A program made the position numbers and the translations under genes. A DNA stretch of 26,088 bases from a virus (lineage: Duplodnaviria; Caudoviricetes), in IMG/VR virus record IMGVR_UViG_3300011339_000038, positions 1-26,088 of that record; one strand, written 5' to 3'. Under the pieces are notes generated by a model. That model searched no databases, was not told where the DNA came from, and saw only the letters and a program-made list of their open reading frames with translations. How positions within the stretch are numbered: position 1 is the stretch's first letter; every line of letters begins with the position of its first letter. This document shows, piece by piece, positions 3,335-14,464 of this stretch.

Positions 3335-3463
3335 ATGAATAAGGGAACACACGCTCCAGCTCCAGTACAACCAATTAAGGTTGATACAAAGGCAGGATCA
3401 GTCAAAGGCGGTAAAGTTGACTTCGGTTATGCCGGAACAGCTCGCAAGGGTAAGAAGGCTTAA
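3335..3463 (+). CDS. Small basic protein (42 aa), not in ORF track
   Basis: Perfect AAGGAGGT RBS at about 3321-3328, ATG 3335, MNKGTHAPAPVQPIKVDTKAGSVKGGKVDFGYAGTARKGKKA, TAA ending 3463. Confidence 0.8.
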   Translation: MNKGTHAPAPVQPIKVDTKAGSVKGGKVDFGYAGTARKGKKA

Positions 3464-11020: not shown

Positions 11021-12247
11021 ATGGCTGAGCAATTTGTAACGGATATTTCAAAGTTTTCAAAAAATGTTCAAGATGCACTTATAGGAACCGCTAAAGCAGC
11101 TGGGATGGAAGTAGAAGAATATCTCAAGTCACGTGGTGGTATAAACCCAATTACTAGAAAGTTTGGTGATTCATACAATCCCAGCACAGATCTTACTGAT
11201 GCTGAATATCAAGCAGCCGTTGCTGGTAAATCTGGAGCAGATATAGGTAAAGCAATTAACGCTGCAACAGAAGCAAAATTAGCAGCATTTACTAAAGCAA
11301 ACCCACAATCAACTCAAGCAAAAGGATTATTGTCAGGAACTGCAGCAAAATTAAAGACAGATGCTGAAATTGCTGCAGAGACAAAGGCTGCTGAAAATAA
11401 GGCAGAACGCCAATCAGCCTATGATTTGCTATTGCAGCAATTTAATCAATATGGATTAAGCGCTTTAGTAACCCCACTTAAAGACCTTATTACTAGCGGT
11501 GCCTCACCATCAGAGTTTACAATTCGCTTGCGTGAGTCAGATGCTTACAAGAAGCGCTTTGCTGCAAACCAAGATCGTATCAATAAAGGATTAACAGCAA
11601 TCTCAGAAGCTGAGTACTTAGGTCTTGAGGACCAGTACCAGAACATTATGCGTAACTACGGCCTACCTGCCGAGTATTACACACGCGGAGATATGGGAAT
11701 CCAAGAAGGATTCAACAAGTTTATTGCTAACGATGTATCTGCAGCAGAACTAGAAGACCGTGTTATGACAGCGCAGTCTCGTGTTATGAACGCTAACCCA
11801 GAGGTGCTTGCATCTCTTAAGGCATTCTATCCAGACATCACCAATGGTGACATCTTGGCTTATACATTAAATCCAACTAAGGCACTTACTGATATCAAGC
11901 GCAAGGTAACTGCAGCTGAAATCGGTGGAGCAGCAACTCAGGCAGGACTTGGATTAACAGGTACTCGTGCTGAGGAATTGGGTGCTGCAGGCATTACTAA
12001 GCAGCAAGCACAGCAAGGTTTCCAGACAGTTGCAGAAGTCGCACCACGTGGTGGACAACTAGCAGCAATCTATGGTGAATCACCATACACACAGCAAACA
12101 GCAGAACAGGAAGTCTTTGGACTTACTGGTTCAACAGAGGCTGCAAAGCAGCGTAAGAAACTTGCAGGGCTAGAACGCGCAGCGTTCTCTGGCCAAACAG
12201 GTGCAGCGCAAGGTGCTCTCGGTAGAGAGCGTGCTGGCAACTTCTAA
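11021..12247 (+). CDS. Putative internal virion / ejection protein (408 aa)
   Basis: Ala/Gln/Gly-rich helical protein, last gene of the block before the scaffold. Confidence 0.55.
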   Translation: MAEQFVTDISKFSKNVQDALIGTAKAAGMEVEEYLKSRGGINPITRKFGDSYNPSTDLTDAEYQAAVAGKSGADIGKAINAATEAKLAAFTKANPQSTQAKGLLSGTAAKLKTDAEIAAETKAAENKAERQSAYDLLLQQFNQYGLSALVTPLKDLITSGASPSEFTIRLRESDAYKKRFAANQDRINKGLTAISEAEYLGLEDQYQNIMRNYGLPAEYYTRGDMGIQEGFNKFIANDVSAAELEDRVMTAQSRVMNANPEVLASLKAFYPDITNGDILAYTLNPTKALTDIKRKVTAAEIGGAATQAGLGLTGTRAEELGAAGITKQQAQQGFQTVAEVAPRGGQLAAIYGESPYTQQTAEQEVFGLTGSTEAAKQRKKLAGLERAAFSGQTGAAQGALGRERAGNF

Positions 12248-12258
12248 ATAAAAGCCTG

Positions 12259-12370
12259 CCAACGGGACGACTGGTCCGTTGGAGCGATAACAAAACCAGG
12301 AGTAAGAGCCACGATAGATTCCCCAGTTTATCGTGAGGCTTACGCAATCAAACCAATGATAGGGAGAAGG
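12259..12370 (+). ncRNA. Candidate structured cis-regulatory RNA (H-type pseudoknot plus long hairpin) in the scaffold/capsid leader
   Basis: S1 CCAACGG 12259-12265 / CCGTTGG 12276-12282; S2 CTGGT 12271-12275 / ACCAG 12295-12299; A-rich loop 3. Second hairpin 12302-12343 (GTAA/TTAC, GCC/GGC, ACGATAGATT/AGTTTATCGT, loop CCCC) lies just 5' of the GGGAGAAGG RBS. Confidence 0.6.
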
Positions 12371-12373
12371 ACT

Positions 12374-12841
12374 ATGTCCAATTACGACTACGAGGATGAT
12401 GACGATTTCGATACGAATGAGTCAAGCAATGACCTTGTAAAACAACTACGCAAAGCAGCTAAGCAAAAGGATAAAGAACTAGCAGAACTTCGTTCTCAGT
12501 TTGATGGACTCAGCAAAGCTCAACGTGAAAGATCAATCAAGGATGCCCTCGAACGTCGCGGGGTAAATCAGAAGATCGCTTCATTTATCCCACAGGACAT
12601 TGACCCAACTGAGGAGTCTGTGTCTAAGTGGCTTGAGGATTATGCCGATGTATTCGGTATAGACCTTGGCCAAAACCAGAGTACGAATGTAGACCCAGCA
12701 GATATTGCTGCATACAAGAAGATGACAGGAACAACTGATGTTGCTCAGTCACCTGAACGTGGCGCAGACGTGATGTCCCGCCTAATGAATGCAAACAGCA
12801 AAGAAGAACTGGACGACATCATTCGCCAATCTGGACTTTAA
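12374..12841 (+). CDS. Capsid scaffolding protein (155 aa; start revised from 12356)
   Basis: GGGAGAAGG RBS before ATG 12374; acidic N-terminus (DYEDDDDFD), coiled-coil LVKQLRKAAKQKDKELAELRSQF; immediately upstream of the major capsid gene. Confidence 0.8.
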   Translation: MSNYDYEDDDDFDTNESSNDLVKQLRKAAKQKDKELAELRSQFDGLSKAQRERSIKDALERRGVNQKIASFIPQDIDPTEESVSKWLEDYADVFGIDLGQNQSTNVDPADIAAYKKMTGTTDVAQSPERGADVMSRLMNANSKEELDDIIRQSGL

Positions 12842-12870: not shown

Positions 12871-13809
12871 ATGGCAATTCCAGCAGGTAATTTAACTGGT
12901 ACCTCCGATATCTCAGCACTCGTAAAGACAGCGTACGATCAATATGTTCGTATGGCTCTCCGTAGCATTCCAGTAATGCGTGCGATTGCAGATGTCAAGC
13001 CAGTACAGCAGGCTATGCCTGGTTCATCAGTTGTGTTCTCTATCTACTCAGATCTTGCACAAGCAACATCTACATTGACAGAAACATCAGATGTATCAAG
13101 CATTGCTCTAGGTAACCCAAACCAGGTTACAGTAACTCTGAACGAATACGGTTCAGCAGTTACAACAACAAAGAAGTTAAACCTAACTTCATTCAACGAT
13201 GTAGATTCAGCACTTGCTGACATCATCGCTTACAACTCAGCAGACTCAATTGATGCTGTAGTTGCAGCAGTTCTTACAGGTGGCTCAAACGTCATCTACG
13301 CAGGAACAACAGCGACATCAACAAACACAATCACAGCAACATCAACAATGGCTGTGGCTGATATCCGTGAGGCTGTAACACAGCTTCGCACAAACAAGGC
13401 TGTGCCACGTATCAATGATTTGTACGCAGCATACCTACACCCACGTCAGGCAGCAGACCTACGTGCAGAGTCAGGCACTGGTGGATTCCAGGCATTGACA
13501 CAGTACGTAGATCGCACACCATTCGTGGCTGGTGCAGTAGGAGTAATCGAAGGTGCATTCGTTGTTGAAACACCTCGTATTCCTTACGCAGCAAACACAC
13601 AGTCACCAGCTGTTAACGTCTACAAGGCAGTTATTGCCGGACGTGAAGCATTGGCAGAAGCACAAGGACAGGACATCTCTACCGTTATCGGACCAGAGAT
13701 CGATGCTCTACGTCGTTTCCGCACAATCGGTTGGTACTATATGGGCGGCTTTGCTCGCCTACGTGAAGCAGCTCTATATCGCATTGAGTCTGCAGCGTCT
13801 ATTAACTAA
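12871..13809 (+). CDS. Major capsid protein (HK97 fold; resembles N4-gp56/P22-like coat proteins)
   Basis: 312 aa, GAAAGG RBS, strongly biased codon usage. Motifs VTVTLNEYG, YAAYLHPRQAADLR, GVIEGAFVVET and DALRRFRTIGWY are typical of this capsid family. Confidence 0.9.
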   Translation: MAIPAGNLTGTSDISALVKTAYDQYVRMALRSIPVMRAIADVKPVQQAMPGSSVVFSIYSDLAQATSTLTETSDVSSIALGNPNQVTVTLNEYGSAVTTTKKLNLTSFNDVDSALADIIAYNSADSIDAVVAAVLTGGSNVIYAGTTATSTNTITATSTMAVADIREAVTQLRTNKAVPRINDLYAAYLHPRQAADLRAESGTGGFQALTQYVDRTPFVAGAVGVIEGAFVVETPRIPYAANTQSPAVNVYKAVIAGREALAEAQGQDISTVIGPEIDALRRFRTIGWYYMGGFARLREAALYRIESAASIN

Positions 13810-13815
13810 GTAATT

Positions 13816-13857
13816 GGTTGACTGCAGGGCTTGGGAAACCAAGCCTTGTGGTAAGCC
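13816..13857 (+). terminator. Long GNRA-capped hairpin after the capsid gene (U-tract-less terminator or mRNA stabiliser)
   Basis: ACTGCAGGGCTTGG-GAAA-CCAAGCCTTGTGGT (14 bp with G-U pairs), extended by GGTT/AGCC; no poly-U. Confidence 0.6.
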
Positions 13858-14195: not shown

Positions 14196-14464
14196 TGGCT
14201 AAACACAGAGAAGATCACCCAGTAGATGTTGATGGTTGCTTTGGTTGCAAAGTAATCGGATTGCAGTTAGATCCAGGAGCTGCAAAGAGCAATGGCGTAC
14301 CAACTGCCAAGGCTCACGATAAAGAGTTGAGTTCTTACTACAGCGCAGTACGGCAGGGAATCGAACCTCGTTCGACGAAGCAGCACGATATTGATGCAGC
14401 AGTAAGAATCAGCAATGAAGCAGGCAAAGCATTTGATGGAGCAAGTTTAACTCTAAAACCTTAA
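14195..14464 (+). CDS. Hypothetical protein with N-terminal H-x3-H-x6-CxxC putative metal site
   Basis: TAATG-coupled; sequence HREDHPVDVDGCFGCK. Confidence 0.7.
   Translation: MAKHREDHPVDVDGCFGCKVIGLQLDPGAAKSNGVPTAKAHDKELSSYYSAVRQGIEPRSTKQHDIDAAVRISNEAGKAFDGASLTLKP

Follow-up and report, generated by a model that had tools for sequence, protein, structure and literature searches.

A conserved leader RNA with two serial pseudoknots ahead of a phage scaffold-like gene: a probable message stabiliser and candidate translational operator

The 126-nt gap at positions 12248 to 12373 of the window, a 26,088-nt stretch of DNA from a tailed-phage record (Caudoviricetes; IMGVR_UViG_3300011339_000038), is, judged by sequence comparison, a member of a conserved cis-acting RNA leader that comprises about 400 distinct phage sequences and includes those of cultured cluster BF podoviruses. 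Its predicted architecture is that of two serial H-type pseudoknots followed by a small hairpin, and it overlaps both the ribosome binding site (RBS) and the start codon of the gene downstream. Comparative data and analogy make it most likely that the leader shields the mRNA of the head genes and holds back the output of scaffold protein. More specifically, we propose a two-module design similar to that of the T4 gene 32 leader, in which a 5' stabiliser is followed by a translational operator that would probably sense free scaffold protein; with a probability of about 0.45 this reading is a tentative one. It is poorly understood how phages that lack a dedicated head promoter make head proteins in excess and adjust scaffold to capsid. 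P22 is the main known case of scaffold autoregulation, and several of the catalogued motifs that precede scaffold-type genes have no assigned function.

The window is a linear virus record in which a terminase gene and long virion-type genes are followed by a 155-aa gene and then by the major capsid gene. The features that frame the leader are:

11021 to 12247, + strand: upstream gene of 408 aa (phrog_8424, function not assigned), whose TAA stop is the 5' border of the gap
12374 to 12841, + strand: gene of the 155-aa scaffold-like (head scaffolding) protein (phrog_7813; weak match to phrog_648, head scaffolding)
12871 to 13809, + strand: major capsid protein (phrog_1357), with its own AAAGG-type Shine-Dalgarno (SD) sequence within a 29-nt gap
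13817 to 13856, + strand: strong hairpin after the capsid stop (-24.5 kcal/mol, z -5.9)

Pfam DUF4355/Gp46 is matched by 29 of 112 relatives of the 155-aa protein (E<=0.01). Its structural model is all-helical and the best viral fold matches are scaffolds, none of them significant; a fold search with the model against PDB and BFVD gave nothing at E<=0.001 and no match to an RNA-binding fold. On these domain matches and the predicted structure, the product is a scaffold-like protein. The nearest cultured relatives by capsid protein are the Streptomyces cluster BF podoviruses (Beephvirinae), at about 40-45% identity, from which we infer an actinobacterial host; a GTDB scan returned four short contigs in MAGs of mixed taxa, which do not indicate hosts. 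The cultured BF phages Kumquat, Manuel, Immanuel3, Abafar, FlowerPower and JXY1 have the same layout with a different sequence. The hairpin behind the capsid gene is long and has a GAAA loop and no U tract. Post-capsid hairpins below -20 kcal/mol occur in 224 of 242 relatives, and in phage Abafar a hairpin at the corresponding place is annotated as a terminator; that of the window is probably a terminator, or else the place where the head-gene mRNA has its 3' border. The two larger apparent gaps upstream are occupied by small ORFs, so that the description of the 126-nt gap as the longest in the operon, made in an earlier note on this DNA, is correct for non-coding gaps between the terminase gene and position 14464. 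Two small ORFs (<70 aa, with SD-like sites) lie at about 1399-1555 and 3335-3463, after the terminase and portal-like genes.

Relatives were collected in three steps. A close set of 80 loci, 76 of them with both genes, yielded an alignment of the window and 64 distinct leaders (65 sequences). The wider set holds 267 distinct leaders including those of distant clades. The parser recognised an SD and a hairpin with a CCC(C/U) tip in 265 of them, 264 of which have the 5' pseudoknot as well; L127 and L351 were mis-called starts and L169 is a tip variant that was recovered later. A further 244 loci added 137 new leaders for a total of 402, with L671 dropped as a mis-called start. Compensatory events were counted on a combined scaffold and capsid tree with 264 leaves, the window excluded, and 257 leaders have the canonical register. 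Scaffold identity to the window falls to 20-40% in 139 of 261 matches.

The + strand of the gap folds better than each of 200 shuffles (z -2.7 to -3.0), whereas the - strand does no better than shuffles (z +0.4). In the 65 close sequences a structure of 24 pairs is paired in 96.3% of cells, against 29-44% in slid controls, and two-sided changes are found at 12 of the 24 pairs; none of 500 shuffles matches the close set in paired share, two-sided counts or covariation score. The covariation among homologous leaders that the earlier note had named as a check of its reading is thus found at P1, pseudoknot 1 and P3, and the sequences it had listed are all in place (S1 at 12259-12265/12276-12282, S2 at 12271-12275/12295-12299, the hairpin at 12302-12343 and GGGAG at 12362-12366). 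In the window the gap is open and in frame over 42 codons, which would permit a pseudoknot-aided readthrough of the upstream TAA that fuses the upstream protein to the scaffold. This recoding has next to no probability: none of 76 relatives (0 of 76) keeps the gap both in frame and open, its length varies between 119 and 132 nt in all three phases, and in BF phages it is interrupted by tRNA arrays. Readthrough fusion was rejected as a conserved mechanism on these counts.

The first module lies at the 5' side of the leader and consists of the following parts:

12248 to 12254, + strand: A-rich spacer, a candidate processing site; BF-like phages have the 3' end of a tRNA or tRNA array here instead
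12256 to 12284, + strand: P1 hairpin, paired in 98.5% of cells and with two-sided changes at 5 of its 9 pairs; its core is 12259-12265/12276-12282
12270 to 12274, + strand: 5' strand of pseudoknot 1 within the P1 loop, core 12271-12274
12285 to 12295, + strand: A-rich linker of pseudoknot 1
12296 to 12300, + strand: 3' strand of pseudoknot 1, core 12296-12299

Beyond a bulged G, P1 may be extended by two pairs (12256-12257/12283-12284), which are invariant and for that reason not proven. At the three variable core pairs of pseudoknot 1, changes are compensated on the same branch in 22 of 22, 11 of 16 and 5 of 6 cases, with no compensatory event in slid controls; the last core pair is invariant on the tree and changes from G-C to C-G in 15 further leaders. 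The S2 helix of the earlier note, which corresponds to this pseudoknot, is therefore upheld in its covarying core but not in its fifth pair, 12275-12295, which is kept in 17 of the 65 close sequences and 39 of 257 in the family. The family's own fifth pair occupies the position of 12270-12300 (167 of 257) and is open in the window. Two linker A's, four and three bases before the 3' strand, are conserved at 87% and 95%. The P1 loop (12266-12270 in the window) shows the pattern G-A-N-N-N-A before the pseudoknot strand, kept at 81%, 72% and 79%, which we take to be reminiscent of a T-loop module.

When module 1 alone was used as the pattern for an RNA-first scan, at least 120 stretches were listed and 80 examined; among these listed matches a scaffold gene lies downstream in 74 of the 75 scorable loci, and of the remaining loci examined five were cut by contig ends and one was unrelated. 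The leader thus has a fixed cis position ahead of one gene family and overlaps its initiation region. In the BF-like phages (L082-L088 and L089-L168), between 1 and 24 tRNA genes lie exactly between the upstream gene and the leader. ARAGORN places tRNA ends of eight isotypes directly upstream in 36 of 60 loci, mostly picked from the BF-like clade. The outermost P1 pair lies between -6 and +5 nt from the discriminator in all 37 strict T-arm loci (of 257), with up to +12 allowed, and 32 of the 37 continue with CC. T-arm-like remnants that ARAGORN does not call are present in L123, L129, L146, L149, L167, L179 and L369.

Self-cleaving theta (HDV-like) ribozymes occur behind phage tRNAs, and an element that begins where tRNAs end, as it does in BF-like phages, would fit a ribozyme that frees tRNA 3' ends or cuts the operon. 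The HDV-like fold is a nested double pseudoknot in the order P1-P2-P3-P1.1-P4, with a catalytic C in J4/2; by eye, the leader has a simple H-type helix order instead, no ribozyme family matches it, and most members of the family, including the window, have no tRNA upstream, all of which leaves this explanation with very little chance. Since the element begins at the tRNA 3' end in BF-like phages, it probably forms the 5' end of a processed mRNA there, and would be that of the product downstream of tRNA processing. In the accessible text of PMC4681348, S. coelicolor is described as cutting CCA-encoding tRNAs between the C's and others within a few bases; the same text credits it with an RNase J and states that 5'-to-3' decay is not dominant in its mRNA turnover. 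As to a separate promoter, no sigma-70-like site was found on the + strand near the gap, and TANNNT upstream of P1 occurs in 51 of 306 leaders, against 58.7 in shuffles; no promoter signal emerges for leaders without a tRNA. Contigs from four of the 23 listed RNA-library runs, which are RNA runs alone and of a kind that does not reveal ends, give cover from the leader bin to the capsid stop in 4 of 4 cases and near-zero cover upstream of the leader in 3 of 4. This is compatible with a transcript that extends from leader to capsid, but the upstream gene is more divergent among relatives, and with this confounding the cover is not counted as evidence.

The second module reaches the initiation region of the scaffold gene:

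12302 to 12343, + strand: P3, a 42-nt hairpin with GA bulges at 12306-12307 and 12335-12336 (hairpin alone, z -5.1)
12321 to 12324, + strand: CCCC tip of P3, of which 12322-12324 is the 5' strand of pseudoknot 2
12362 to 12366, + strand: Shine-Dalgarno sequence GGGAG, of which 12362-12364 is the 3' strand of pseudoknot 2
12369 to 12379, + strand: P4, a 4-bp hairpin with the AUG (12374-12376) in its loop and stem

P3 forms at -8 kcal/mol or better in 264 of 264 leaders, as compared to 134 of 792 shuffles, and the GA/AGC bulge motif is found in 203 of 257. When the tip sequence is not assumed, the deepest hairpin of the region still has a CC(C/U) tip in 365 of 401 leaders. Its complement lies in the 5' half of the SD: GGG, or AGG where the tip is CCU. 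Where the fourth base of the tip faces the one preceding the GG of the SD, the 264 leaders have C-G in 232 cases, U-A in 28 and U-G in 4; C-A, which the parser allowed, was never seen (0/264). The U-A cases correspond to four parsimony events within the BF-like clade, of which the true number may be fewer; L169 adds an independent U-A case, its nearest relatives having CCCC together with GGG. A CCU tip accompanies all 29 scaffold SDs of the AGG type, and these come from at least two independent lineages; a U also follows the C run in 155 of 373 GGG-type leaders. Of the distinct RBS windows of these phages, 191 of 215 ahead of scaffold genes have an SD of the GGG type, as against 8 of 183 ahead of capsid genes, where AGG prevails (161 of 183), a preference that tip-SD pairing explains. 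Throughout a large clade (L410-L612) the scaffold RBS reads GGGUGG in place of GGGAG, and in L536 GGGCGG, so that the GGG is kept while the rest changes.

The BF variants fix the register of pseudoknot 2 at 12322-12324/12362-12364. The earlier note had paired UUCCC with GGGAG: the complementarity between tip and SD that it saw is real, and the conserved register lies one base off. Pseudoknot 2 has three pairs in the window and in 145 of 402 leaders, with a family range of 3-5 bp. No variation is seen at its two C-G pairs, which the parser demanded, its sole covarying pair accounts for 2 to 5 events, and the next pair is formed in 157 of 264 leaders with no compensatory event. Its mean length over all leaders, 3.83 against 3.76 with shuffled partners, is within the shuffle range; over the 163 distinct types it is 3.88 against 3.73, a value reached by 0 of 1000 shuffles. 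Longer P3 hairpins do not come with longer linkers (Spearman -0.54; clade and errors in the fold boundaries confound this value). The comparative data thus make the formation of pseudoknot 2 probable, not proven. The switch that the earlier note had envisaged, in which CCAGUU would pair alternatively with GACUGG in the first loop, can form in the window but lacks conservation. Its central pairs are present in 167, 133 and 135 of 257 leaders with 0, 2 and 1 compensatory events, a helix of at least 4 bp is possible in 82 of 257, and the small excess in mean best helix length (3.19 against 2.99 with shuffled partners) is due to two large clades. What persists of its translational-operator reading is a conserved, covarying and unnamed cis RNA that is tied to scaffold genes and has a hairpin tip complementary to the SD.

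The start-codon hairpin, which like the position at tRNA 3' ends is absent from the earlier note and was found by comparison, is formed between the SD-AUG spacer and the first codons. Of 264 leaders 194 have it, whereas shuffling of spacers and coding starts leaves 89 on average and 103 at most; it is present at 89 of 134 distinct scaffold starts versus 46 of 190 capsid starts; some clades lack it (70 of 264 leaders). Its stems differ by clade (GGAC/GUCC, UGCC/GGCA, GUAG/CUAC, UUGC/GCAA and GGUCA/UGACC), which suggests that stability and not sequence is selected there.

We propose that the leader would act as follows. A cut just upstream, by tRNA 3' processing in BF-like phages and by an endonuclease in the A-rich spacer in the window, would turn pseudoknot 1 into the 5' end of a stable mRNA that encodes scaffold and capsid and ends at the post-capsid hairpin. 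The SD pseudoknot (3-5 bp) and the start hairpin (4-6 bp) would be too weak to stay shut alone; unassembled scaffold protein would bind the leader, with the conserved bulged stem as the candidate binding site, keep both pairings shut and thus repress its own translation, while capsid translation would go on from its own SD. Once scaffold is held in procapsids, the repression would be released. Weak pairings kept by evolution are typical of ligand-stabilised switches, and free scaffold, as for P22, is proposed as the simplest ligand.

The same anatomy could also work without a ligand. Pseudoknot 1 would then stabilise the head mRNA, be this processed or initiated on its own, and the start hairpin would form with pseudoknot 2 a fixed brake that keeps scaffold output below capsid output without any switch. 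The tRNA abutment, the independent capsid SD and the several unrelated start-hairpin sequences fit such a brake. However, a weaker SD would serve this purpose more cheaply, and the conserved unpaired or bulged bases (the GA/AGC motif and the A's of loop and linker) point to tertiary contacts or a ligand, so that we hold a ligand-free design to be rather unlikely. Across the family the RNA is better conserved than the scaffold protein, which diverges far more; this speaks against a scaffold-sensing operator and in favour of a switch with another ligand, be it the capsid or portal protein, a host ribosomal protein, a small molecule or an ion. The topology, too, resembles that of H-type riboswitches whose pseudoknot pairs with the SD. 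No riboswitch in Rfam matches the leader, though, and its strict link is to a structural gene and not to metabolic genes, which renders another ligand improbable. Finally, since many scaffold copies are needed, the folded leader could serve as an enhancer, docking to the 30S subunit and presenting SD and AUG to it for high scaffold output (standby, entrapment or IRES-like), and SD-adjacent pseudoknots do activate some plasmid rep genes. Here the pairing covers the GG of the SD itself as well as the AUG, which normally lowers initiation, and this role is accordingly highly improbable.

A close parallel to the proposed scaffold-sensing leader is the T4 gene 32 message, for which a pseudoknot at -67, an RNase E cut at -71, a long half-life and autogenous repression are described in the accessible text of PMC3014915. 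Like the leader of gene 32 in T4, T2 and RB69, that of the window has an H-type pseudoknot at the 5' border of a phage mRNA leader; the former lies just behind a processing site on a stable mRNA, and we propose the same for the latter. Gene 32 has a single pseudoknot and an unstructured A+U tract over its RBS, whereas here SD and AUG are in conserved pairings, and the downstream gene encodes a scaffold instead of an ssDNA-binding protein; a sequence relation was not found between the two. The autoregulation of the P22 scaffolding protein (gene 8) was reportedly described by Wyckoff and Casjens in 1985, and we know of no operator pseudoknot for P22. In the part available of 10.1101/2022.12.13.520362, the N-terminus of the P22 scaffold is implicated in translational autoregulation. 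The P22 scaffold gene likewise lies directly ahead of the coat gene, and the proposed logic of repression by free scaffold is shared, although host and scaffold family are unrelated.

The preQ1, SAM-II and guanidine-III riboswitches, all of which are SD-sequestering pseudoknot switches, also have a hairpin loop paired to the RBS, within an H-type knot whose linker is A-rich. The rpsO/S15 operator is of this kind as well (PMC3014915, accessible text). The leader differs from these four systems by a stem of 40-55 nt, a knot of only 3-5 bp and a second pseudoknot in tandem that does not involve the RBS. As for the stabiliser, exoribonuclease-resistant RNAs (xrRNAs) occur in plant viruses as well as in flaviviruses. 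Those of flaviviruses block RNase J1 (PMC7603331, text available in part). By analogy, and from the tRNA abutment, we propose for the leader a pseudoknot at the 5' border of a stable sub-transcript; unlike the flaviviral xrRNAs as the available text presents them, it has no three-way junction and would act in a bacterial host. A combined reading is unlikely: pseudoknot 1 would be an xrRNA-type block that caps an mRNA end left by host tRNA processing or an equivalent cut and carves a long-lived message for scaffold and capsid out of the late transcript, and on that message the start hairpin and pseudoknot 2 would be a switch that senses scaffold. If true, this would be a complete RNA-only module that amplifies and balances head proteins across a very large phage family; a pseudoknot that blocks an exonuclease in bacteria would also be of use as a part for stabilising mRNAs.

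The leader matches no named family of Rfam 15, and the earlier note had recognised none: none of the Rfam 15 covariance models (including GP20-a, GP20-b, Mu-gpT-DE, riboswitches and ribozymes) reaches its gathering threshold in the window, where three irrelevant matches have E values of 2-5, and in 20 relatives only tRNAs passed. GP20-a (RF02991), GP20-b (RF03003) and the csRNAs upstream of GP20/DUF4355 genes (Fremin 2023, PMC10690425, accessible text) are likewise conserved structured RNAs directly upstream of phage scaffold-type genes; the GP20-a and GP20-b models have no match at E<=10 in the window or at E<=1 in 20 relatives. As far as the same text describes them, five candidates found only ahead of DUF4355 come from gut, other host-associated and engineered samples, mostly with Firmicutes hosts. 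A search for motifs of the leader in the tables of Fremin 2023, in which there may be no sequences, gave no match. An unlabelled entry of the leader family in the catalogues of Fremin 2023 or Weinberg 2017 is possible, the distinction being drawn from the available descriptions. In the open-access literature no description of this scaffold-leader RNA was found, the accessible text of the Abafar paper does not mention it, and bioRxiv 10.64898/2026.07.01.735769, in its available part, concerns other motifs. From the comparative sequence evidence, the leader is a real new structural family inside a known functional kind. Most metagenomic motifs are without members in cultured phages; the natural compensatory variants of this family and its members in cultured phages of Streptomyces strains used in the laboratory make both the operator and the 5'-cap hypotheses directly testable.

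P3 contains an extra hairpin in L434; others separate the two modules from each other in L139 and P3 from the SD in the L329 clade (L329-L364). That they are tolerated at three places indicates that the two leader modules fold independently. In Caudovirales sp. ct2KA10 (L086, 3001-4152) the capsid match is split in two and spans about 1150 nt for a query of 312 aa, which suggests that its capsid gene has an insertion.
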